Of a stretch of 64,000 nucleotides of DNA, positions 6,561-18,597 are shown in pieces. Every line of letters starts with the position of its first letter. Position 1 is the stretch's first letter. Position numbers and translations under genes: made by a program. Under the pieces are notes generated by a model, which was given only the letters and a program-made list of their open reading frames with translations, had not been told where the DNA came from and did no database searches. Origin of the DNA: Escherichia phage adrianh; sequence record MN850614.1. One strand, written 5' to 3'.

Positions 6561-6831
6561 AGAGAAGTGGGAGATTTTACCACTAGTCAGTGAGGGTGGT
6601 AATGGCTGTGAAATGTACATGATACGTGGGCATGTTCCAGAACCAATTGCACTTGAGATGGTAAACAATTTTACAGATGGCTCTTACAAAGATTTAGGAG
6701 AACCAACTGTCAAGCAACAATGGGTTAAACCTGTACCAGACAGCACAGGTAACTGTAGTGTACTTTATCACGTTGTAGACCCTGCAAAATGCAAATCTGC
6801 AATGGCAGTAACAAACGTAACTTTTGATTGA
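6553..6831 (+). CDS. Hypothetical protein
   Basis: Track ORF 6526..6831, first ATG at 6553. Confidence 0.4.
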   Translation: MAKEKWEILPLVSEGGNGCEMYMIRGHVPEPIALEMVNNFTDGSYKDLGEPTVKQQWVKPVPDSTGNCSVLYHVVDPAKCKSAMAVTNVTFD

Positions 6832-6841
6832 GAGAAAAACT

Positions 6842-7723
6842 ATGAAGACATCTATTCGTGTTATAATTCATTCACCGACAAAAGGGTCTCATGAAGAAGA
6901 GTTTAACATCATCCAGTTCCCTTCTGGTGAGATTGGTGGACACTTTTCACAAGAGCTTGTTGATTTTACTGCTTATGCAGCATCATCTATCAACAATGTG
7001 ATTATGATTGTAAAAGGTTATGATAAGGACACATTGTTTGCTGTGGCACTCGCTAAAGAAGCAATTGATGATTTAATTCCTCATGATTATGCCTTAAAGA
7101 CTGTCATCTTTTACTACTTACCAAATGCACGATATGACCGTCACATGTTTAAAGGTGATGCAGCAGCTTTGAAGGTTTTTGCTAAACAGGTTAATGCAAT
7201 GGGGTTTGGTGCAGTATGTGCAGTTGACCCTCACAGCTATGTACCAGATAACCTGTTTGACTGCTTCCAAAGTATTCCTCAAAATGAAATTGCAGTCCAC
7301 TATGCAAATGACCCACTGGTTGATTACTTAGTAGCCCCAGATGCAGGTGCTGCTAAGAAGATTGCAGAGACTGCTAAAGAGGTGGATAAACCATATATCA
7401 CAATGTCTAAGGTGCGCAACCTTAAAACTGGTGAAATTACTGGTATGCGAATCCTTGATGATGTTGATTTGACCGATAAAACTGTTATGATTCTCGACGA
7501 CATCTGTGATGGCGGTCGAACCTTCATAGAAGCAGCTAAACATCTTCGTGAAGCAGGTGCAAAACGTGTGGAACTCTATGTAACACATGGTATCTTCTCT
7601 AAAGGGGTTGAAAACCTTCTTGACAATGGTATTGACCACATCTACACTACAAACTCTTTAGGGGAAGCTAAAGACCGTGGTTTAACACATTATGGTCAAG
7701 TTACTGTAGCAAACCTTGATTAA
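6842..7723 (+). CDS. Prs-family pyrophosphokinase (PRPP synthetase homologue; candidate ADP-ribose pyrophosphokinase)
   Basis: YLPNARYDR, AVDPHS and MILDDICDGGRT motifs align with bacterial Prs; ATG 6842 (track used TTG 6824). Confidence 0.85.
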   Translation: MKTSIRVIIHSPTKGSHEEEFNIIQFPSGEIGGHFSQELVDFTAYAASSINNVIMIVKGYDKDTLFAVALAKEAIDDLIPHDYALKTVIFYYLPNARYDRHMFKGDAAALKVFAKQVNAMGFGAVCAVDPHSYVPDNLFDCFQSIPQNEIAVHYANDPLVDYLVAPDAGAAKKIAETAKEVDKPYITMSKVRNLKTGEITGMRILDDVDLTDKTVMILDDICDGGRTFIEAAKHLREAGAKRVELYVTHGIFSKGVENLLDNGIDHIYTTNSLGEAKDRGLTHYGQVTVANLD

Positions 7724-7769: not shown

Positions 7770-9551
7770 ATGACTAAATCACTTTATGCAGTACCAGCAG
7801 GTTTAAACGCAGATGCTTACAAATCTGGTCATGTTTACCAGTACCCTAGTGCAACAGATTACTTGATGTTTAACCTGACACCACGTAGTGATAAATGGTT
7901 TAACAGCCCTTTAGCAATTGATGGTGTAGTGGCTTTTGGTATTCAACGTTTTGTTAAAGATTACTTAATAGACCACTGGAACGCCACCTTCTTTGAACGT
8001 GACAAAAAAGAAGCAATTGATGAAATCTTAGAAGTCATGAACGGTGTTCTGGGTAAAGATGCTATTGGTCGAGAACATTGGGAAGCACTTCACGACTTAG
8101 GTTATCTACCAGTTGAAGTATACGCTGTAGAAGAAGGTACAGTTGTCCCTATGCGTGTTCCAATGATTGTATTCCAGAACACTGTTTCAGGTTTCCATTG
8201 GGTAGCGGGATATCTGGAAGATGCTTTCTCTGCTGAGATTTGGAAGGCTTGTACCATTGCAACTATTGCATTGCACTACAAACGTATCTGTAAGAAGTGG
8301 TCTGACCTTACTTGTGACAACGACTTGCATTTACCTTATCAGTGCCATGACTTTGCTATGCGTGGTATGTCCGGCTTTACCGATGACGCATTTAACGCTG
8401 TAGGTCACTTAACCAGCTTTAAAGGGACTGATAGCTTCCCTGCTGTGTATACAGCTAAACGCATCTATGGGCAGTCCTATCCAATTTCCGATATTGGTGG
8501 TTCTGTACCAGCCACTGAACACTCTGTCATGTGTGCAAACATTGCTTGGGAAGGTGGGAATGAGTTAATTGAAGAAGAAAGACGCTTTAAAGGTGAGTTA
8601 CAAACCTTCCGTCGTTTCTTAACAGAAACTTACCCAACTGGTATTGTAAGTATTGTTTCAGACACTTATAATTTCTGGAGAACTGTATCAGTGATACTCC
8701 CAGAACTCCGTAAAGAGATTATGGAACGTGATGGCAAACTGGTAATTCGTCCTGACTCTGGCGACCCTGTACATATTGTCACAGGTTATAAAGCAATCCA
8801 CTTAGAGTGTGCTAAAAAGGCTTATTACGAACACCTAAGCAAGCTTGAAGCCAGCGACACAATGTTGAATACTGTTCTGAACATGAAGCTTGAAAACATC
8901 AACTACGGCATTGCTGGGTGGCTACTGTCAGAAGGTTACGAAATGGTTGTTGACAGAGAAGACTTTGAAGTTGCTGATACAGTGATGTTGAAAAATGCTT
9001 ATATGGTTGGTTCTGCAAACGTTGTAACACGTCCTGTAGCAGAGATTGATGGAGCTATCAAGACACTGTATAACATCTTTGGGGGAACTATCAACTCTAA
9101 AGGTTTTAAAGTACTGGATGAGCACATCGGACTTATTTATGGTGACTCTATCACGTTGGAACGTGCAAACGAAATCTTGAAGCGTTTGTATGAAATGGGT
9201 TTTGCAAGCTCTAACGTAGTGTTTGGTGTAGGCTCTTACACTTACCAGTACATGACTCGTGACACCTTTGCATTTGCTGTCAAAGCAACTCTTGCAAGCA
9301 TTGGTGGTAAAGAGATTATGCTTGCAAAAGACCCTAAAACAGATAGTGGTGTTAAGAAATCTGCCTTTGGTGGTGTAGCACCTATGTGGGATGGTGATAA
9401 GCTGAAAGCTGTAGATGGCTATGGATTCCAGAGTTTTGCAGATGTACTTGACCACCAAGCTTGTGCTTTACGTTTAGTCTTTAGCGACTCTGAGCAGTTC
9501 GGTTATACAACTCTTGGAGATATTCGAAATAATATTGACAAGCAGCTTTAA
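7770..9551 (+). CDS. Nicotinamide phosphoribosyltransferase family protein (NAMPT/NadV-like; candidate Namat)
   Basis: 593 aa; HDFAMRG, FKGTDS, SVPATEHS, IVSDTYN, IRPDSGDP and IYGDS blocks match NAMPT as recalled. Confidence 0.85.
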   Translation: MTKSLYAVPAGLNADAYKSGHVYQYPSATDYLMFNLTPRSDKWFNSPLAIDGVVAFGIQRFVKDYLIDHWNATFFERDKKEAIDEILEVMNGVLGKDAIGREHWEALHDLGYLPVEVYAVEEGTVVPMRVPMIVFQNTVSGFHWVAGYLEDAFSAEIWKACTIATIALHYKRICKKWSDLTCDNDLHLPYQCHDFAMRGMSGFTDDAFNAVGHLTSFKGTDSFPAVYTAKRIYGQSYPISDIGGSVPATEHSVMCANIAWEGGNELIEEERRFKGELQTFRRFLTETYPTGIVSIVSDTYNFWRTVSVILPELRKEIMERDGKLVIRPDSGDPVHIVTGYKAIHLECAKKAYYEHLSKLEASDTMLNTVLNMKLENINYGIAGWLLSEGYEMVVDREDFEVADTVMLKNAYMVGSANVVTRPVAEIDGAIKTLYNIFGGTINSKGFKVLDEHIGLIYGDSITLERANEILKRLYEMGFASSNVVFGVGSYTYQYMTRDTFAFAVKATLASIGGKEIMLAKDPKTDSGVKKSAFGGVAPMWDGDKLKAVDGYGFQSFADVLDHQACALRLVFSDSEQFGYTTLGDIRNNIDKQL

Positions 9552-9949: not shown

Positions 9950-10290
9950 AAATTATGAAAATCAAAGAAATGAACATCAATATTGTCTTAGAAGAACGCT
10001 GGGAGAACATCAAGAAGCCTGAAAATGGTCATAAGTTCCTCAACAAAATCTTAGTAGCAGCTAAAGAGGAACTGACTGGCAAGGTTGCAGCGGCAATCAC
10101 AATAAAGGTGTGTGTGAAAGGTCTTCCAGACAATCACCAATTTGCACTTGACGAGTTTAAAGAAAGCTTCTACAATCCAAACAAACAGATGCTTGAAAGT
10201 AACTTTGCAGTATCTACAAGTATCGTCCATGACAGAAGCTTTATCCTTTACAAGAATATGAGAGGTGAGTTATGCAAGCATATTGGATAG
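9943..10290 (+). CDS. Hypothetical protein
   Basis: 115 aa ORF. Confidence 0.45.
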   Translation: MVKIMKIKEMNINIVLEERWENIKKPENGHKFLNKILVAAKEELTGKVAAAITIKVCVKGLPDNHQFALDEFKESFYNPNKQMLESNFAVSTSIVHDRSFILYKNMRGELCKHIG

Positions 10291-10448
10291 AAATTTTACT
10301 GTCACTTGGTAGTGTAGCAGTGTTCGTATACCTTCTTTGCAAGTACTACGCAGAGCACAAAAAATGTGACTTCTGTAATGGGGAAGGTTATACAAGAGTA
10401 GGCTGTTGCCCTATATGTGGTGGTTCTGGTAAAATGTTTAATAAGTAA
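10272..10448 (+). CDS. Small membrane protein with CxxCxGxG zinc-ribbon (hypothetical)
   Basis: 58-codon ORF below track cutoff; GAGGTGAG RBS; hydrophobic N-term then CDFCNGEG..CPICGGSG. Confidence 0.45.
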   Translation: MQAYWIEILLSLGSVAVFVYLLCKYYAEHKKCDFCNGEGYTRVGCCPICGGSGKMFNK

Positions 10449-10476
10449 TTTAACAGCAAACTAAGAGGAAAGTATT

Positions 10477-12843
10477 ATGCGCATGGTAAATGACCACGCA
10501 GAAGTGATTAAGAGTTCAACTTCTTTAGAGACGTCTCAAGCACAGATTACAATGACACCCGAAATGTTCAGCCTTTTGAGTTCTGGTGTATACACCTTTA
10601 AAGAAAGGGCAGTTATTCGTGAACTGTCATGTAACGCAGTAGATGCTCAGAAAGAGGCTGGAAAAGAGAACATTCCGTTCCATGTGCATTTACCTACTCG
10701 TTTTGAGCCTTACTTTGAAGTTCGTGATTTTGGAACTGGATTGACTCATGATAAAGTTATGAGTTTGTATCTAAACTACGGGGCTTCTACGAAGAATGAC
10801 TCTAATGACTACATTGGTGCAATGGGTATCGGCTCAAAATCCCCATTTGCAATTGCTCAGTCATTCACAGTGTCCAGTTATGTTGATGGTGTTGTTAATA
10901 AGTACTCTGTTTATCTTGAGAATGGTATTCCTCAAGTAACTAAGCTGACCACCAACCCAACAAAAGAACCTAATGGTTTAGCTGTACGTGTAGCAGTTGC
11001 TGACCATCGTATCTCAAAGTTCTTTGAAGAGGCTGGTCACGTATACTCATACTTTGCTGTAAAACCGGAAAGTAATATCGAGTATGACGATGTATTGTCA
11101 GATATGAACGTCATTGCCCGTGAAGAAGGTGTTTATGATGCCATGATTCATAAGCAAAGCTGGCGTTCTAGTGGTAACAGGACAGAGTTTAATGTAGTGA
11201 TGGGTAACATTGCCTACCCTGTTAACATGGAAGCATTACTTGGTGATGATTTCTTCAAAGTCTTGCCAGAATTTTTCCGTAGGAGCGTAGACCTTGTAAA
11301 CATCTATATGCCTATTGGTTCAGTTGCTATTGCAGCTTCTCGTGAAGCATTGCAGATGAATGATACAACAAAAAATGTTATCATTGAGGCTACTAAAAAG
11401 ATAACTGAAGCAATTACAAAGGATGTTATCAAGAAAGTTAACAACCAACCTACACTCATGGATGCTGCACAGGCTTATGCTGAGTTACGTTTGAACTCAC
11501 GAGAGATGTTTAATGCTGTGTGTCCAAAGCTAGAGTGGGGAGGCATTAAGCTTGATTCTCTGGAAGAAGAATTACTAAACATTCGTCGTGGGATTATCTA
11601 CGCAGAAGACGGCTCAGTCATTTATGAACGTGACGGTAAAGGTAATATCAAGGTTGATAGGAACGGGAACAATATCCCTAAAGTGGATTATCTTTATAAT
11701 CCAGTTGCTTATGTCAAGTTCAACTCTTTAGAGAGTAAGATTCGTGCAACAGCACTTTCCTACACTCAAGAGGCAAGTATGTTCAATATCTTTGGTGCAA
11801 TGCGTAAAAGCCAAATTGAACAGTTTTTGTTCGTGATTAATGACCGTCGTAATAAAAATGGCACTGAGAAGACTGTAGGCCGCAATCAGATTCTGCGTGG
11901 TGCATGTCGAGACTACGCTAACGAGTCAAGCCTGTTCCACAGATACAATGGTATTGTGTTTGTATTCTCGACTGAAAAAGAGTTAGATGATTTAATCAAT
12001 CTACACAAGCTTGATAAAAGTTTGTTAAAGATTGTGAAGATGTCTGATAAGGAACACCATTATCAGCGTAAAGAAGCTGTGAGGGGTGTTGTAAAACTCT
12101 GGAAAGCTGTTCCATCAGAAACTAAAGCTTCATACACAGAGGTGTCAGAAGACCTAGATACAATTGAAGAACCCCAGCTTTATATCAAGGCAGTAGGCGA
12201 CACAGTTGATGGTGAATGTTTTTGCTCATCCCCAGAAGATGTAGCTAAAACAATTGCTAATGTTATAGGAAAAACAGTCTATGTTTTCCGAAAAGCAAAT
12301 TGGAAAAAGATACCAGAAGACTGGATTGAAGTAGATGAGAAGCTATTGAATGACAGCTTAACTGATGTTCACTGGATTAATCATAACAGGTATATGACAC
12401 GTATCTATATGAATGGTGTCCTTGACCTTACAAGTAGTTGGATTATTGCCAGAAACTTTACGTTTAATAACAAGAAGATTTCTCGCGGGTATTGCTATTC
12501 ACGAGATACAAACAAAACCATCTTCTTAGAAGGTAATGAGAATGCTGTTGAGGCAATGTTTGGTAAGATTCAGTATGTGGCTGCACCGTTTGCATACACT
12601 TACACTATCAGTGTTCTTCAGGATTTGAAGTCATGCCTTGACAATGATACAAAACTGTACAAAAAGATTAAGAAAGCGGGTGACCGCATGGTTATCAAAC
12701 TGACAAACTATCTTTCAAAAAGAAAACAAGAAAACTTCTTGCTTTCTCATTTAGATTGGAATAAAGTGTCACCCATCGAAGTGAGTAAGTTCTTAGGTTT
12801 TGATGTGAAGTGTGTTCCAGAAGGAACTACAATTTACGATTAA
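10477..12843 (+). CDS. rIIA: GHKL-ATPase protein, rIIA-like
   Basis: 788 aa; N-box ELSCNAVDA, G1 box DFGTGL, G2 box GAMGIGSKS; large size and position before rIIB-like gene. Confidence 0.55.
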   Translation: MRMVNDHAEVIKSSTSLETSQAQITMTPEMFSLLSSGVYTFKERAVIRELSCNAVDAQKEAGKENIPFHVHLPTRFEPYFEVRDFGTGLTHDKVMSLYLNYGASTKNDSNDYIGAMGIGSKSPFAIAQSFTVSSYVDGVVNKYSVYLENGIPQVTKLTTNPTKEPNGLAVRVAVADHRISKFFEEAGHVYSYFAVKPESNIEYDDVLSDMNVIAREEGVYDAMIHKQSWRSSGNRTEFNVVMGNIAYPVNMEALLGDDFFKVLPEFFRRSVDLVNIYMPIGSVAIAASREALQMNDTTKNVIIEATKKITEAITKDVIKKVNNQPTLMDAAQAYAELRLNSREMFNAVCPKLEWGGIKLDSLEEELLNIRRGIIYAEDGSVIYERDGKGNIKVDRNGNNIPKVDYLYNPVAYVKFNSLESKIRATALSYTQEASMFNIFGAMRKSQIEQFLFVINDRRNKNGTEKTVGRNQILRGACRDYANESSLFHRYNGIVFVFSTEKELDDLINLHKLDKSLLKIVKMSDKEHHYQRKEAVRGVVKLWKAVPSETKASYTEVSEDLDTIEEPQLYIKAVGDTVDGECFCSSPEDVAKTIANVIGKTVYVFRKANWKKIPEDWIEVDEKLLNDSLTDVHWINHNRYMTRIYMNGVLDLTSSWIIARNFTFNNKKISRGYCYSRDTNKTIFLEGNENAVEAMFGKIQYVAAPFAYTYTISVLQDLKSCLDNDTKLYKKIKKAGDRMVIKLTNYLSKRKQENFLLSHLDWNKVSPIEVSKFLGFDVKCVPEGTTIYD

Positions 12844-12848
12844 AGTGT

Positions 12849-12878
12849 TTGACAAGGGGCTTCGAAGCCCCTTAGAAT
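12849..12878 (+). promoter_or_regulatory. Sigma70-like promoter with hairpin in spacer
   Basis: TTGACA, 18 nt spacer containing AGGGGCTTCGAAGCCCCT hairpin, then TAGAAT. Confidence 0.45.
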
Positions 12879-12922
12879 AGCCTTACAAAATGATTTATTA
12901 ACTAACAAGAGAGAGTAATAAG

Positions 12923-14032
12923 ATGACTACTAAAACTAAAGCACAGATTGACGCAGAAATTTACGAACTGGTTAAAGAAGGTAAGCTGACTAAAACAGCT
13001 ATTGCACAGAAGTTCAATACTTCAACCCGTTCAGTTGGTCGTGCTGTAGAGCGTCATGAAGCAACCTTAAAAGGTAAGAAAAAGGTAGCTTCTAAACCAG
13101 CTACGAAGACTTTGAAGCAAGTTGCTAAATCAGTTAAAAAGAAAGCTGACAAACCAGTTGAAAAGGTTGTTAAAGAGCCTGTACAGAAAGCTCCGGTAAA
13201 TAAACTGCATGAAGCTATGCAGAATGGCAACCAGATTGAGTACATGATTACTGGCGACTCTGTTATCATGACTTTCGGTGCAGATTCTGAAATCGTTGAA
13301 TCTACCCATCCGAACTACAAAGAAATCGTGATGGCTGTTGTATCCGGTGAGTATAAGAAAGCTTTCGAACTGATGAACATTCGTAAGTCTATCGAAAACT
13401 TCACTCAGGGTGCTATCACCATCAAAGGTGACAAGTTATTCTATGGTGCTGTTGAGATGCGTTCTACTCTGGTTGACCGTATTCTTCACATGATGAAGAC
13501 TGGAGATAAGGGTTTTGAACGCCTTGTGATGTTCTTCGAAAAACTGATGGAAAACCCATCTAAAGACTCTGTAGAACAACTTTGGGGATTCGTATCTCAC
13601 CTTGATGTTGAAATTGATGAAGAAGGCTACATCATTGGTTGGAAGAAAGTCTCTACTCATGAAGGCAAGCTGGTTGACTCCCACACCTACAGAGTACCTA
13701 ATGATTTGGGTAACATTGTAGAAATGCCACGTTGGATGGTTGATAATAACCGTAACGTGACTTGCTCTCAGGGTCTTCACGTTGGTGCTTGGGATTATGT
13801 TCGTTGCTTCTCAGGTGATACAATCCTGAAGGTTCGTGTCCATCCACGAGATGTTGTATCTGTTCCAACTGATTACAACGATATGAAGATGCGTTCGTCT
13901 CGTTATGAAGTTGCAGCAATCGTTGATAATCAACGTAAAGTGCTGAAAGAATGGGATGGCAAGACTGAAGCTTTGCATGTCATCGTTGGCACTGCTGGTG
14001 AACTAATCTCCCAACGTAAACGTGAAATCTAA
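12923..14032 (+). CDS. rIIB: rIIB-like protein (by synteny)
   Basis: 369 aa, directly downstream of rIIA-like gene; Lys-rich linker; no diagnostic motif. Confidence 0.35.
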   Translation: MTTKTKAQIDAEIYELVKEGKLTKTAIAQKFNTSTRSVGRAVERHEATLKGKKKVASKPATKTLKQVAKSVKKKADKPVEKVVKEPVQKAPVNKLHEAMQNGNQIEYMITGDSVIMTFGADSEIVESTHPNYKEIVMAVVSGEYKKAFELMNIRKSIENFTQGAITIKGDKLFYGAVEMRSTLVDRILHMMKTGDKGFERLVMFFEKLMENPSKDSVEQLWGFVSHLDVEIDEEGYIIGWKKVSTHEGKLVDSHTYRVPNDLGNIVEMPRWMVDNNRNVTCSQGLHVGAWDYVRCFSGDTILKVRVHPRDVVSVPTDYNDMKMRSSRYEVAAIVDNQRKVLKEWDGKTEALHVIVGTAGELISQRKREI

Positions 14033-14047
14033 TAAGTAATTTCTTAA

Positions 14048-14072
14048 AAGGCTGCTTCGGCGGCCTTTTTTA
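14048..14072 (+). terminator. Rho-independent terminator (UUCG tetraloop)
   Basis: GGCTGC TTCG GCGGCC then TTTTTT. Confidence 0.6.
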
Positions 14073-14132
14073 TTTGTATTTTGTGCAGAGTGCTGTATAA
14101 TTGTTGTCACGATAAACTAAACAGGAGAACCA

Positions 14133-14681
14133 ATGAAGAAATTGATTCTAGGTTTGTGCTTAATGTTTACAGCACACTTATCTTATGCAGTTGACTGCCC
14201 AGAGCTATCAATTAGCCAAAAAGTAAACATGTTAAAAGCTTACCAGTATGGTGAGAATAACATGGGTAAAGGTTGGGGTATCACTCTAGCTGCTATAGCC
14301 TTACAAGAGTCAGAGTTAGGTCTGAAGGTAGAGAATAAAAAGACACATGATTATGGTATCTTCCAGAATCACTTGAAGACTGTTGTAAAGCGTAACAAAA
14401 TCAGTCCTAATGTGGCTAAAAAGAAACTCTTAAAAGACTTTGACTATGCTGCTAAGGAAACTCACAAAGAGCTTGAGTTTTGGACAAAGGTGCATGGTCA
14501 GCCAAAGTCAAAGAAGACTTTACAAAAAGTCTTAGCATCATATAATGCTGGGTATTCGTACAGAATCCCTAAAGCTAAGAAATATTCTCAAGATGTTTAT
14601 AACAATATGAAAGTAATTGCTCAATGTGAATTTGCAACAAACATTTCTAAGGTAAACCATGAAAAAATTAAGAAAGTCTGA
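14133..14681 (+). CDS. Secreted lytic transglycosylase (SLT domain)
   Basis: Signal-peptide-like N-terminus; SLT motifs LQESELG, GIFQ, SYNAGY. Confidence 0.55.
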   Translation: MKKLILGLCLMFTAHLSYAVDCPELSISQKVNMLKAYQYGENNMGKGWGITLAAIALQESELGLKVENKKTHDYGIFQNHLKTVVKRNKISPNVAKKKLLKDFDYAAKETHKELEFWTKVHGQPKSKKTLQKVLASYNAGYSYRIPKAKKYSQDVYNNMKVIAQCEFATNISKVNHEKIKKV

Positions 14682-15354
14682 TGAAGTATTGTGCCATGCT
14701 TATGACTTACATCCTCATGAGTTAGTTCTTGATTCCTGTGTATGGACTCCAGAACAGTGCAGGGATTTTGAAGACACCGCAAGAGAAGTTGTATGTTCAC
14801 TTGAAGAGTTCCACACATCAGAGCCAATTGTGAATGTTGTAGATAAAGAGACTGGACAAACTATAGGTGTAAGTCGTGATAGCTTAGTCATAGTCAATAA
14901 AGACCTTGTAGAAAAAGGTAACCTCATCTTAGCAGATATTGATGGTGTTCTTACAAATTTTAATCACGAAGATTGCTCAACGGAATTGACTGATGGGTCA
15001 TTCTCACAGTACACTAATCTTCTTGACTCTGTAAGAGCAAAACCAACGTATGTCTTTAGTATTATTGATGCAATTGCTAATCATGCTGCCATTGGACTCT
15101 TGACAGCGAGAGGTGAATCTCAGAGAATACCTACTGAGATGTTTTTAAGGCACAATATAGAGCATGATTACTTGCTTTTTATGCGTGGTTTTGGAACTAA
15201 CTCTATAAGTGCAGAAAGTTTGAAAGTGAGGATGATTCAGTCTTGCATTCTTCCTTACTTTAATATAGTATGTTTTATAGAAGATACAGAGAAGAATGTT
15301 CAGAAGGTAAACAGAATCCTTCCACACATTAAAACCATGTTAGTTAAACACTGA
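14659..15354 (+). CDS. HAD-like hydrolase (hypothetical)
   Basis: 231 aa; LILADIDGVLT resembles HAD motif I (DxDG[TV]). Confidence 0.4.
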   Translation: MKKLRKSDEVLCHAYDLHPHELVLDSCVWTPEQCRDFEDTAREVVCSLEEFHTSEPIVNVVDKETGQTIGVSRDSLVIVNKDLVEKGNLILADIDGVLTNFNHEDCSTELTDGSFSQYTNLLDSVRAKPTYVFSIIDAIANHAAIGLLTARGESQRIPTEMFLRHNIEHDYLLFMRGFGTNSISAESLKVRMIQSCILPYFNIVCFIEDTEKNVQKVNRILPHIKTMLVKH

Positions 15355-15363
15355 GAGAAACTT

Positions 15364-15828
15364 ATGAACAATATCATTACGGTAGCACTGGACGTTACAG
15401 CAAACAAATCTGAAGTAGTTCGTAACATTATCAAGAGCAACTTTGAAGGTAAAATCTTCCGTGCTGTCAATGTAAAAGCAGACGGTAACATCCGGGAGTA
15501 TCGTGCTCTTCTGAATGTTAAGAAACACGTAAAAGGTGCTGGTTCAACGACTGCACACAAAGAAAACCTGATGACTATCTATGATATGGGTATGGCTTCA
15601 GAGTTAGGTACTGAAGGTATCGTTAAAGAAGGTGCTCCGTATCGCTCTTTCAATCTGGAAACTGCTCTTATGCTTTCCTTTACAAGTGGTTCTAAAACAA
15701 CTACTTATCTCTTTACTGATGCTGCAACGGTATCTGCTATCAAGGATAGCACTGTCAAAGCTGGGGTAGCTGCTGCTGCAAAAGCTTCTTCGATGGCTGC
15801 AAATGTCCTTGCTAAAGTCCTCGGTTAA
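15364..15828 (+). CDS. Hypothetical protein
   Basis: 154 aa ORF, Ala-rich C-terminus. Confidence 0.45.
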   Translation: MNNIITVALDVTANKSEVVRNIIKSNFEGKIFRAVNVKADGNIREYRALLNVKKHVKGAGSTTAHKENLMTIYDMGMASELGTEGIVKEGAPYRSFNLETALMLSFTSGSKTTTYLFTDAATVSAIKDSTVKAGVAAAAKASSMAANVLAKVLG

Positions 15829-15839
15829 GGTTAAGATAC

Positions 15840-15862
15840 AGGCTCCTTCGGGAGCCTTTTTC
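15840..15862 (+). terminator. Rho-independent terminator (UUCG tetraloop)
   Basis: AGGCTCC TTCG GGAGCCT then TTTTT. Confidence 0.6.
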
Positions 15863-15880
15863 ATTTCAGGAGATTGTTAA

Positions 15881-16228
15881 ATGACATTTAAAGAGTTCTG
15901 TCAAGCTACTTTCATAATTGTTTTCTTAGTTGGGGCAGGTGTCTGGGGAGGATACTCTTACAGAGACTATCAAGTTGCTGAAGCTGAGCTAAATAATGAG
16001 AAACTAATAAGTGTTGCCAAAGATGCTTATCAGGAAGGTTTAGCCACACTGAGCACCAATTACAAAAATGATTTGAAAGATGTGCTTGCTAAGAATAAGC
16101 ATACAAAAGAGGTACTAACGTATGAAAAGACTAAGCCAGAGTTTTATAATGTTTGTGTTACTGATAATTATGTCAGGGTGTTCAACGAACAAAGTGAGCA
16201 GTACATTCAAAAACTCCCAAGTAAGTGA
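15881..16228 (+). CDS. i-spanin-like protein (N-terminal TM, coiled-coil)
   Basis: 115 aa; hydrophobic N-terminus then charged helical region; overlaps next lipoprotein ORF. Confidence 0.4.
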   Translation: MTFKEFCQATFIIVFLVGAGVWGGYSYRDYQVAEAELNNEKLISVAKDAYQEGLATLSTNYKNDLKDVLAKNKHTKEVLTYEKTKPEFYNVCVTDNYVRVFNEQSEQYIQKLPSK

Positions 16229-16391
16229 GAGTGATAAGTACACTCAAGAAGAATCACGGTATATCATCAAAGGCAACACAGGTAGTGATGTAGCAGCAGC
16301 ACTTGAGTTCTACCGTGACGGATTTTACCAGTGTACAATCAAAGCTAATAACCTTATTGACATGATTTTATTAGGGAATAAGCAGCAATGA
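16122..16391 (+). CDS. o-spanin-like lipoprotein
   Basis: 89 aa; signal peptide with lipobox-like IIMSGC; start embedded in upstream ORF in another frame. Confidence 0.4.
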   Translation: MKRLSQSFIMFVLLIIMSGCSTNKVSSTFKNSQVSESDKYTQEESRYIIKGNTGSDVAAALEFYRDGFYQCTIKANNLIDMILLGNKQQ

Positions 16392-16657
16392 CAGAGAACG
16401 AAGATACTTTCTATGTAGAAGGGTACTTACTGCTACCACGACCAAAAGAAACTTATATGCGGGTTGATTTCTCACCAACCATTATGGATAACGTGATGTG
16501 TCATATCTTTATGCAAGGTGTCACAGCACAACTTAAGCATGTTGGTAAAGAGTGCAAAATAAAGGTTGACACTCATCCAGAAATCAAAGAGAATCACTAC
16601 ACATGGTTCTTACCAGACTCTAAAGAAATCTTAGCAGTTCTTAAAACGAGGAAGTAG
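16388..16657 (+). CDS. Hypothetical protein
   Basis: 89 aa ORF. Confidence 0.4.
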   Translation: MTENEDTFYVEGYLLLPRPKETYMRVDFSPTIMDNVMCHIFMQGVTAQLKHVGKECKIKVDTHPEIKENHYTWFLPDSKEILAVLKTRK

Positions 16658-16659
16658 CT

Positions 16660-16986
16660 ATGCAGATTAATGGAAGAGACTTTGTAGCCGTTTACTATGA
16701 TAACGATAAAGAAGTTGGTGTAGCACAGGTAACCTATGGCAATGGTAAGTGGCTATATGGAACAATCGCAGTAGTAGGAACAAGAAGTGATACAAAAACT
16801 TTTAAAGATTGTGTTGACCTTCTTGAAGAATCCATCCACAATCATTGGTGTCTGATATGGATGACTGACAATGAAGTGATGGAACGTTTCAAAAAGATTG
16901 ATATCAACATAGACAGCATTGAGCATGTTGACTTGTATGAACTGACTGAGAAGGTAAATTATGAAAGTAATTCTAGCCAGAGATAA
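16660..16986 (+). CDS. Hypothetical protein
   Basis: 108 aa ORF. Confidence 0.4.
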   Translation: MQINGRDFVAVYYDNDKEVGVAQVTYGNGKWLYGTIAVVGTRSDTKTFKDCVDLLEESIHNHWCLIWMTDNEVMERFKKIDINIDSIEHVDLYELTEKVNYESNSSQR

Positions 16987-17188
16987 AAAGACACGGAAAA
17001 TTATCCGGTCAGCAGTATTTATTGGAAGAAATGAAGTGATTCCTTTTACAGCAAATGATGTGATAGTCTACAGGAAAAAATTAGCATTCAGTTATTGCTT
17101 ACGTGGCTTTATCTCCCAGCCATTAGAAGATTTTAAAAATCGTTGTGGTAAAGGCATCATCATTCAAGAGGCAATTATTCATGGCTGA
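16961..17188 (+). CDS. Hypothetical protein
   Basis: 75 aa ORF. Confidence 0.3.
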   Translation: MKVILARDKKTRKIIRSAVFIGRNEVIPFTANDVIVYRKKLAFSYCLRGFISQPLEDFKNRCGKGIIIQEAIIHG

Positions 17189-17381
17189 CTTCTGCAAAGA
17201 CTGTGCTATCGAGATGTTTGGACGTGATACAGGTGATTTAAAAGGTCTTATCACTGAAGATGACTTTAAAGCTGGCTATGCAATGCCAGTAATCTGTGAA
17301 GGTTGTGGATGTATCTGGGTAGACCACGAAGGACAGCGTGTAAAACCTTCAGAAGATAAAGAATCTTGGGAGAGATGCTAA
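17181..17381 (+). CDS. Small Cys-rich protein (CxxC..CxxC)
   Basis: Track ORF 17145..17381; ATG at 17181; CKDC and CEGCGC motifs. Confidence 0.4.
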   Translation: MADFCKDCAIEMFGRDTGDLKGLITEDDFKAGYAMPVICEGCGCIWVDHEGQRVKPSEDKESWERC

Positions 17382-18167
17382 ATGGGTATTGTAAAAATCA
17401 TCAATGGTGATATCTTTGCAGCATTTGATAAAGGTAAGTTTGATGTCATCGGTCACGGTTGCAACTGTATGAACTTAATGGGCGCAGGTATCGCTGACAA
17501 GATTTCCAAACTTTACCCAAAAGCATATGAGACCGACACAGAAGTTTATATGTATGCAGGTGGTATAGGACACAAACCCTGTGAAAATTTACTGGGTAAT
17601 TTCTCTGTAGCACGTTTAAAACAAGGTCGTATAGCTAACCTTTACACTCAGCTTAAGACTGGTAAAGATGCCCGATACAGTGCTTTAGAGTCATCTTTGA
17701 AGCAGCTTAACAGATACTGTGAAGTCAATCAGTTGAAGAAAGTAGGGTTACCTATGATTGGTGCAGGTATCGGTGGGCTAGACCCTCAAGCCGTCACAGT
17801 TATCATTAATCAGGTGATGAAGAGTGTAGATGTGTATCTATATGTCTATGAAGGAGAGATGTACCACAAGTTATGCTCAGGTTGGAAGAACTACTGTGAA
17901 CCAGAATACTTTGCAGGTGTAGCAGTGTTCACGGATAATGCAGTTACCCTCTTCAGACGAAGAAAGGGTAAGATACATCAAAGTAACCCTCCGGTTGAAA
18001 AGATGTCTCTAAGTAACGCTCTAGTTACCCACCTGTCGAAGAGCAATCACAGAATTGCAGTAACATTTGGCAGTGATGCAGATGCTTATATCTATGCAAG
18101 AACTGATGAGGATATCGAGTTAATCTTCTCTTCACCAGAGCTTACCTTCTTAGACGCAAAGAACTAA
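17382..18167 (+). CDS. Macro-domain protein (ADP-ribose binding/processing)
   Basis: 261 aa; N-terminal GDI..GHGCNCMNLMGAGIA and later GAGIGG resemble macro-domain glycine loops. Confidence 0.55.
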   Translation: MGIVKIINGDIFAAFDKGKFDVIGHGCNCMNLMGAGIADKISKLYPKAYETDTEVYMYAGGIGHKPCENLLGNFSVARLKQGRIANLYTQLKTGKDARYSALESSLKQLNRYCEVNQLKKVGLPMIGAGIGGLDPQAVTVIINQVMKSVDVYLYVYEGEMYHKLCSGWKNYCEPEYFAGVAVFTDNAVTLFRRRKGKIHQSNPPVEKMSLSNALVTHLSKSNHRIAVTFGSDADAYIYARTDEDIELIFSSPELTFLDAKN

Positions 18168-18235
18168 GAAACTTCGTAGTATATTCACAATAGACTAAGC
18201 CTTTCTTATCTGGTAAATTTTTCAGGTAAGGAGGG

Positions 18236-18421
18236 TTTTTTCATTTCAGATTTGTGCAGGTAGAGTTCTGTAGAGAAATCTATAGAGAAAATTTTGAACT
18301 CCAAAGAGAAAATTCATTTTCAAACTGTGCAGGTAATCTCCAAAGGGTTTTTTTCATTTTCAAAACGTGCAGAGAAAAATCAGGTCGGGCAAGAAAAATC
18401 ATTTTAGAATTGTGCAGGTAG
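18236..18421. repeat. Four tandem copies of a CATTTTCAAA-N2-GTGCAG(GTA) element
   Basis: Copies at about 18236, 18310, 18347 and 18393; related copy near 14066-14092. Confidence 0.6.
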
Positions 18422-18597
18422 GTGGGTACATGTGGGGATGTCGCCATTTCTCACAAGGCTACCACATCTAAAAATAAAAGTCAACAGAAAAATTTGTAGC
18501 GGATTGAAAAATAATTCTTGATTGTAGTTCTGTTTTGTGGTAGTCGCGCGCACCCGTTTCATTACAATCTTTGCAAAAAATATTTTTAAAATTCCTA

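Follow-up and report, generated by a model that had tools for sequence, protein, structure and literature searches.

A probable ADP-ribose-1''-phosphate phosphatase encoded apart from the NARP1 operon in Felix O1-like phages, and a kinase-less PNKP-type protein near it

The aRES proteins, RES-domain defence proteins from E. coli, Klebsiella and Enterobacter, cleave nicotinamide adenine dinucleotide (NAD+) to nicotinamide and ADP-ribose-1''-phosphate (ADPR-1''-P), a product that the phage pathway NARP1 (genes Adps and Namat) is unable to use. A Poa1p-like Macro protein, Adpp, occurs in 15% of NARP1 operons; the purified Adpp of Vibrio phage Gary (KNV71_gp137) converts ADPR-1''-P to ADP-ribose (ADPR), the H24A mutant of that enzyme is inactive, and overcoming aRES takes all three genes, Adps, Namat and Adpp (Osterman et al., bioRxiv 10.64898/2026.01.28.702374). 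Table S1 of the same preprint lists Pontus, PAK_P1-like and other phages, and no Felix-like, Escherichia or Salmonella phage. NARP1 itself has been characterised experimentally in Bas63 (JohannRWettstein), a Felixounavirus. Here we examine a stretch of 64,000 nucleotides from Escherichia phage adrianh (MN850614.1; hereafter, the window), which holds a NARP1 operon and, outside it, genes for a 261 amino acid (aa) macro-domain protein and a 231 aa HAD-like protein. Our analysis indicates that the macro domain is probably an Adpp-type ADPR-1''-P phosphatase serving NARP1 in trans, with the HAD protein a PNKP-type phosphatase that has no demonstrable place in the pathway. Folds, family membership, conserved residues and gene-neighbourhood statistics were computed here; the activities of Gary Adpp and of Bas63 NARP1 are the findings of others. 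The features on which the argument turns are as follows.

6824–7723, plus strand: Adps, a Prs-like ADPR pyrophosphokinase and first NARP1 gene (Pfam Pribosyltran and Pribosyl_synth; Bas63-type arrangement)
7770–9551, plus strand: Namat, a NAMPT-like nicotinamide ADP-ribose transferase and second NARP1 gene (Pfam NAPRTase; Bas63-type arrangement)
17382–18167, plus strand: open reading frame (ORF) of the macro protein, 261 aa
17382–17852, plus strand: macro domain (residues 1–157), phrog_335, with a Poa1p/TARG1-class fold (Pfam, PHROG, AlphaFold2, Foldseek, BLASTP)
17889–18146, plus strand: orphan beta-rich C-terminal domain (residues ~170–255), confident in the AlphaFold2 model

The macro protein carries the motifs IGHGCNCMNLMGAGIA at residues 24–38 and PMIGAGIGGLD at residues 124–134, in which an earlier note, made from the DNA letters, had seen macro-domain-like loops; both this ORF and that of the HAD protein, and the motifs quoted for them, are present exactly as it described. 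The 261 aa protein matched Pfam Macro (PF01661; E=6.9e-8, 32.9 bits against a cut-off of 22) and phrog_335 (E=3e-112). Its AlphaFold2 model (predicted local distance difference test score, pLDDT, 92.4) comprised a macro domain and a beta-rich C-terminal domain, and the best Foldseek matches of the model were TARG1, Poa1p and DarG, with probability 1.0 to many macro structures. The agreement of Pfam, phrog_335, AlphaFold2 and Foldseek shows that the motifs are not a chance resemblance. The Foldseek comparison which the earlier note had proposed for both proteins thus returned macro and HAD folds rather than unrelated ones, and the Prs-like/NAMPT-like pair that it had placed upstream is the adjacent Adps and Namat of NARP1, 7.8 kb from the macro gene and 5.1 kb from the HAD gene.

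Homology to a validated Adpp, the catalytic His and the signature of the family are all found in the window protein. BLASTP aligned it with the validated Gary enzyme over the entire macro domain (E=5e-14, 28% identity), and phrog_335 is common to the window protein, four Table S1 Adpps (the validated Gary enzyme included) and one T4-like member. At 16 signature columns, defined as those conserved in 19 validated or NARP1-embedded Adpps, 15 residues of the window protein are identical and the sixteenth is I for L. The identical columns include H25, which is the equivalent of Gary H24, as well as N28, N86, Q90, G94 and G132, and the six positions that set the Adpp family apart from TARG1 (N28, P46, N86, Q90, G94 and G132) are all kept. 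Homology places the macro domain in the Adpp family. Window protein and Gary Adpp further share the Asn, the N-x-Y-[TG]-Q motif and the Gly loops, and each shares its genome with Adps and Namat; what distinguishes the window protein is the 7.8 kb and terminator between it and NARP1, an extra orphan C-terminal domain of ~100 aa, and its absence from Table S1. Felix-like phages are missing from that table because the preprint's search reached no further than two genes to each side of NARP1. Yeast Poa1p (PDB 6LFQ–6LFU), a tRNA-splicing ADPR-1''-phosphatase, falls in the same macro sub-class (Foldseek E=4e-10, target TM 0.77) and has its catalytic-region His conserved in the window protein, although it is a single-domain protein of 22% identity with a cellular housekeeping role.

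Macro-family genes are by far the commonest neighbour of any kind that NARP1 has. A survey was made of 68 diverse IMG/VR loci, found by an Adps profile and nearly all arranged as Adps then Namat. A same-strand macro-family gene lay within 10 kb in 19/68 loci, between the two NARP1 genes in 5/68 (L099, L114, L115, L118 and L121) and immediately downstream in 6/68; Vibrio phage Pontus likewise has its macro gene between the Prs-like and NAMPT-like genes. When the survey was dereplicated to 48 lineages, a macro gene was present within 1.5 kb in eight and the next most frequent family in three, consistent with the 15% of the preprint. The part of the earlier note that joined the macro protein to an extended ADP-ribose/NAD+ toolkit is therefore supported, by homology to Adpp and by the family's rank as top NARP1 neighbour.

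In the scheme that we favour, host aRES would cleave NAD+ to nicotinamide and ADPR-1''-P, which is no substrate for Adps; the macro domain would strip the 1''-phosphate to give ADPR, and phage Adps and Namat would remake NAD+ from it, the three enzymes working in trans with the macro gene outside the operon. Adpp activity of the window protein and its cooperation with NARP1 are predictions from sequence. Two circumstances count in their favour: aRES proteins come from bacteria that these phages infect or from relatives of such hosts (E. coli, Klebsiella and Enterobacter), and no homologue of the aRES inhibitor aRad1 was detected in the window by tblastn or hidden Markov model search. Bas63 has the same layout as the window (genes 79–80 Adps and Namat, gene 87 HAD, gene 95 macro). 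PhageMaP knockouts of its genes 87 and 95 had positive fitness on S17-1, MG1655, TerY-P and AVAST type 4 strains, on which both genes are non-essential, as genes 79 and 80 are on lab strains; for gene 95, to be dispensable on lab strains is as expected of a counter-defence gene. PhageMaP makes no mention of DarTG and predates the aRES preprint, and so offers no informative phenotype for either system.

Several observations weigh against an Adpp that serves NARP1. The Adpps described so far were recognised in, or within two genes of, an Adps–Namat operon, and the macro gene of the window starts 7.8 kb and ~15 genes downstream of the end of Namat, with terminator-like hairpins between. Identity to the validated Gary enzyme is just 28%, and the two-domain Felix-type proteins form a clade of their own in a neighbour-joining tree, across which NARP1-embedded members are dispersed. 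The reverse link is weak, since NARP1 was present within 10 kb at only 4–5 of 53 diverse macro loci, and in T4-like phages the macro gene sits beside `vs` with NARP1 not nearby; the family and its signature thus occur in phages without a nearby NARP1, and the signature is no proof of coupling. In SCO6735 a Gln likewise stands for the active-site Lys, and this enzyme hydrolyses ADP-ribose attached to DNA and to protein (PMC9411070). Finally, an Adpp role leaves the C-terminal domain unexplained.

The rarity of NARP1 around macro genes bears on a different proposal, that the protein scavenges soluble ADPR derivatives more broadly and independently of NARP1, its substrates being, for example, O-acetyl-ADPR, ADPR-1'',2''-cyclic phosphate from ADPR-PP decay, cyclic ADPR (cADPR) isomers or toxic ADPR-1''-P itself. 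NARP1-independent scavenging would explain the macro gene of NARP1-less phages: a protein-level search found the family in 2,845 phage records, most sampled loci being without nearby NARP1, and an Aravind-lab survey argues that phage Macro domains chiefly target low-molecular-weight ADPr derivatives. An ADPR-cyclic-phosphate ion was detected in infected cells in the NARP1 paper, and some GenBank records label the macro gene O-acetyl-ADP-ribose deacetylase. Yet the sole demonstrated activity of the family is that of an ADPR-1''-P phosphatase, and where NARP1 operons encode an activity against cADPR, its cleavage is attributed to a protein of another fold, RyDEP; we consider such a scavenger unlikely. 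A 339 aa homologue (P0027) has an NLYTQ-signature macro domain fused to a cREC 'cyclic-phosphate processing' domain (PF20274), which speaks for the scavenger and hints that some members of the family act on ADPR cyclic phosphate, but the C-terminal domain of the Felix-type proteins is not cREC.

The active site was compared with those of the macro hydrolases that remove ADP-ribose from macromolecules. Among 30 macro homologues the NLYTQ motif is invariant, as are Q90, N28, G129 and H25. In the profile alignment Q90 falls opposite the catalytic K84 of TARG1 (= DarG K80) and G131 opposite TARG1 D125; equivalence to DarG and SCO6735 residues was taken through TARG1 K84 and the literature (PMC9411070). 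The catalytic Lys of TARG1, DarG2 and AdfM, and the Asp of TARG1, are accordingly lacking, and at the level of profiles a Gln at the Lys position argues that the protein is not a lysine-type glycohydrolase like DarG2 or AdfM. These two proteins (AdfM is PhiKZ gp104, with N and K as its active residues) belong to the same broad macro class, DarG2 has two domains, and phage-encoded counter-defence has in them a precedent; they differ from the window protein in their catalytic Lys (K80 and K78) and in unrelated C-terminal domains. A Gln at this position is a feature of the ALC1-like hydrolases Streptomyces coelicolor SCO6735 (PDB 5E3B) and Bt_1257. Their Gln in place of the TARG1/DarG Lys, their positioning Asn and the phosphate-loop Gly are all found in the window protein (Q90, N28 and G129), although the substrates of SCO6735 are ADP-ribose linked to thymidine or to protein, and neither its long mobile loop nor its DNA-contact lysines are evident here.

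These likenesses make it conceivable that the macro protein is instead a macromolecule de-ADP-ribosylase, which would strip the thymidine-ADP-ribose left by DarT2 from phage DNA in the manner of AdfM and DarG2, or remove ADP-ribose from protein or RNA, with the C-terminal domain binding the toxin as the second domain of DarG binds DarT. DarG was the best named NCBIfam and PADLOC match, albeit far below the curated cut-off (NF048014, 47.7 bits against 250, with only model positions 12–151 of 338 matched, all in the macro part), and PDB profile matches included Mtb DarG (1e-14), SCO6735 (1e-13), Taq DarG (3e-13) and Poa1p (5e-12). Moreover, N28 and Q90 match SCO6735 N27 and Q85, and that Gln is essential (Q85A is dead) in an enzyme which cleaves DarT-made dT-ADPr faster than DarG does (PMC9411070); a macro domain with a variable second domain also resembles the architecture of DarG. 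The macro protein is, however, much closer in sequence to Adpp than to SCO6735, whose DNA-contact K34 and K89 are apparently not conserved (A35 and G94, a correspondence by register only), and the strongest genomic partner of the family is NARP1, not genes of DNA metabolism. We judge a de-ADP-ribosylase to be an improbable, if reasoned, alternative. Reversal of ADP-ribosylation and consumption of ADPR-derived signals such as cyclic ADPR, the two activities that the earlier note had floated, are both less well supported than dephosphorylation of ADPR-1''-P.

The second domain of the macro protein is confined to Felix-like phages, macro homologues elsewhere being without it. No stand-alone relative was found, and a profile search of the PDB and Pfam scans of each member returned only noise. 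Kinship with cREC, an idea taken from P0027, was ruled out (hhalign probability 0.1%). Conserved residues are limited to P176, G181 and Y238, with almost no polar ones among them, and the domain probably serves for binding or structure rather than as a second enzyme. It also diverges quickly: between Felix-like genomes it is 47–53% identical where the macro domain is 74–76% identical, and overall 28–53% identical where flanks are 74–99%. At one locus (L030, IMGVR_UViG_2974574300_000001, 10001–10774) the macro gene has been swapped for a divergent allele, with 52% identity to window 17382–18167 in the N-terminal domain and 28% in the C-terminal domain, between flanks that are 86–99% identical, which points to allele exchange or diversifying selection at the macro locus. 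Such a pattern of divergence would suit a protein-binding module under arms-race selection, as the de-ADP-ribosylase proposal would have it. The proposals may also be joined: an Adpp-like phosphatase could be fused to a fast-evolving toxin-binding domain that directly blocks an NAD+-consuming effector of the host, be it aRES, DarT or some other, much as DarG combines catalysis with the binding of its toxin, and/or the HAD protein could be a second feeder, turning 2'-phospho-ADPR, NADP or ADPR-1'',2''-cyclic phosphate into NARP1 substrates. We think it doubtful that matters are so arranged. The aRES/Adpp preprint having supplied a tested substrate, recycling by macro and HAD proteins of the ADPR-cyclic-phosphate that comes from ADPR-PP decay is a minor possibility.

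The HAD protein and the boundaries between it and the macro gene are laid out below.

14659–15354, plus strand: ORF of the HAD protein, 231 aa
14659–14913, plus strand: N-terminal domain of ~85 aa, where true Pnkp has its P-loop kinase domain
14914–15351, plus strand: HAD phosphatase domain of PNKP 3'-phosphatase type (residues ~86–231; HAD motifs, family Pfam, Foldseek)
15840–15857, plus strand: terminator-like hairpin, dividing a lysin–HAD–p15364 unit from a spanin-to-macro unit
18197–18238, plus strand: terminator-like hairpin directly past the macro gene (terminator scan)

That the 231 aa protein is HAD-like, as the earlier note held from the motif DIDGVLT (residues 93–99), is borne out by motif and model alike. 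All four HAD motifs are invariant or nearly so in the family (D93-x-D95-G-V, T149, K189 and E208-D209) and lie on a Rossmannoid HAD fold, and R151, of the T/S-x-R motif, is invariant. The protein itself has no Pfam match, but its relatives P0039, P0041, P0042, P0044, P0047, P0048 and P0051 pass the cut-off of HAD_PNKP (PF25109). The top Foldseek match of its AlphaFold2 model (pLDDT 92.0) was the 3'-phosphatase domain of T4 Pnkp (5uj0; E=1.6e-7, target TM 0.79, root-mean-square deviation 2.2 Å), and there was a weak profile match to Pnkp1 (4xrp). Fold and motifs (DxDxT/V, T/S-x-R, K, DD/ED) match those of T4 Pnkp (PDB 5UJ0, 1LTQ) and bacterial Pnkp1, with the differences that the HAD protein lacks the P-loop 5'-kinase, has a unique N-terminal domain, shows no evident equivalent of T4 R176, and has no partner RNA ligase annotated in the genome of a relative. 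That N-terminal domain was modelled as a small alpha/beta domain, in which H13-A14-Y15 is invariant; neither a P-loop motif in the sequence nor a Pfam match to AAA_33 was found in the HAD protein, whereas the true Pnkp relatives P0052, P0053, P0058 and P0061 carry AAA_33 at this position. The GenBank label of the gene in relatives' records, "polynucleotide kinase", is therefore misleading. Motifs and model together describe a catalytically competent, kinase-less phosphatase of PNKP type, most likely one that removes 3' (or 2', or 2',3'-cyclic) phosphates from nucleic-acid ends or nucleotides, end-healing of nucleic-acid 3'-phosphates being the default by homology.

Nothing ties this protein to ADPR or NAD+, and here the toolkit of the earlier note is unsupported. 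The HAD and macro genes belong to different transcription units, split by the hairpin at 15840–15857, with the macro gene last in its unit (the scan counted 10 terminator-like sites where 3.0 ± 1.7 were expected). Erwinia Ounavirinae and another group of ~85 kb phages keep the order rIIB, lysin, HAD, p15364, spanin, macro, so that the proximity of HAD and macro genes is inherited synteny, and HAD_PNKP was near NARP1 in only 3/68 loci. Separate transcription, inherited order and rarity near NARP1 argue against a link of the HAD protein to the macro gene or to NAD+; a neighbourhood scan with the HAD protein returned Felix-like loci only and is uninformative. Between Felix-like subgroups (the window against L024 and L026) the HAD protein is 59–60% identical and its neighbours 74–89%. 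It and the C-terminal domain of the macro protein are both more diverged than their neighbours, which hints that both are under host-driven selection.

A joint role of the two proteins in RNA (tRNA) repair would have the HAD protein heal 2',3'-cyclic or 3'-phosphate ends made by anticodon nucleases and the macro protein clear ADPR-1''-P from a Tpt1-type step. The end-healing fold of the one and the tRNA-splicing role of Poa1p, a structural relative of the other, invite the idea, as do the 24 tRNA genes of the phage and the way in which genes for RNA ligase and Pnkp recur close to NARP1 and macro genes in other phages. T4-type repair, however, yields no 2'-phosphate and has no need of Tpt1 or of a macro step, which counts against the idea. 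The annotations of 50 kb of LinBro, a relative, and of the part of garuso that corresponds to the first ~32 kb of the window include neither an RNA ligase nor a polynucleotide 5'-kinase nor Tpt1, and the two genes, as above, are transcribed apart and lie close together by descent. We hold a shared repair function to be highly improbable.

The region that holds both genes (14000–18500) shares 95–98% identity with many phages of the Felix O1 type (Ounavirinae, Felixounavirus) from E. coli and Salmonella, garuso, humlepung and Mushroom among them. Humlepung (MN850564.1) has 97.6% identity over this region, yet its Adps protein has only 76.8% identity to that of window 6824–7723, a contrast that indicates mosaic exchange of the NARP1 module among Felix-like phages. 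Copies of the Felix-like macro gene, 86–91% identical, occur in MG065664.1 and MG065668.1, which are labelled 'Campylobacter phage A132/A126', and a record labelled 'Staphylococcus' was among the matches to the 4.5 kb region; these are probably mislabelled or contaminated entries.

Around the two genes, a Cys-rich ORF of 78 aa (17145–17381; phrog_2210, CxxC-type motifs, no Pfam match) that is found only in Felix-like phages runs exactly up to the start of the macro gene and may encode a partner co-translated with the macro protein. The SLT-like 'lysin' at 14133–14681 (weak Pfam SLT match, hydrophobic N-terminus) overlaps the start of the HAD gene by 23 nt and is the most broadly conserved member of the syntenic block rIIB–lysin–HAD. 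No RyR/RyDEP or other known domain was found in the small ORFs on either side of NARP1 and of the macro gene. The 24 tRNA genes are clustered at 36148–41046 on the plus strand. Between NARP1 and the macro gene lie rIIA and rIIB (10477–14032), whose Bas63 orthologues, genes 84 and 85, are co-essential counters of the qatABCD defence by PhageMaP; this stretch, too, thus holds counter-defence genes. In Pontus (L003, NC_055801.1, 1641–7192) an RNA ligase-like gene, an AAA_33 P-loop kinase and a calcineurin-like phosphoesterase stand directly 5' of Adps–macro–Namat, and a T4 Rnl1-type RNA ligase and full-length Pnkp recur near NARP1 in further lineages, which suggests counter-defence islands that join RNA repair to NAD+ reconstitution.

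A three-enzyme system of this kind has been described before, as NARP1-AP; the novelty lies in a two-domain form of it, unlinked to the operon, in a large and well-studied group of phages. Felix-like phages make up ~20% of the phage records with an Adps homologue (252/1,248), so that the three-enzyme pathway is probably more prevalent than the published figure suggests. The result for the HAD protein chiefly corrects a database label, and the orphan, fast-evolving C-terminal domain of the macro protein possibly represents a new module for interaction with the host. Should the Felix-type macro protein prove to be a trans-acting Adpp, NARP1-AP would be commoner than reported, a search "within two genes" would miss all Felix-like phages, and Bas63, the model phage of NARP1, along with the widely used typing and biocontrol phages of the Felix O1 group, would already resist RES-type NAD+ depletion by means of gene 95.

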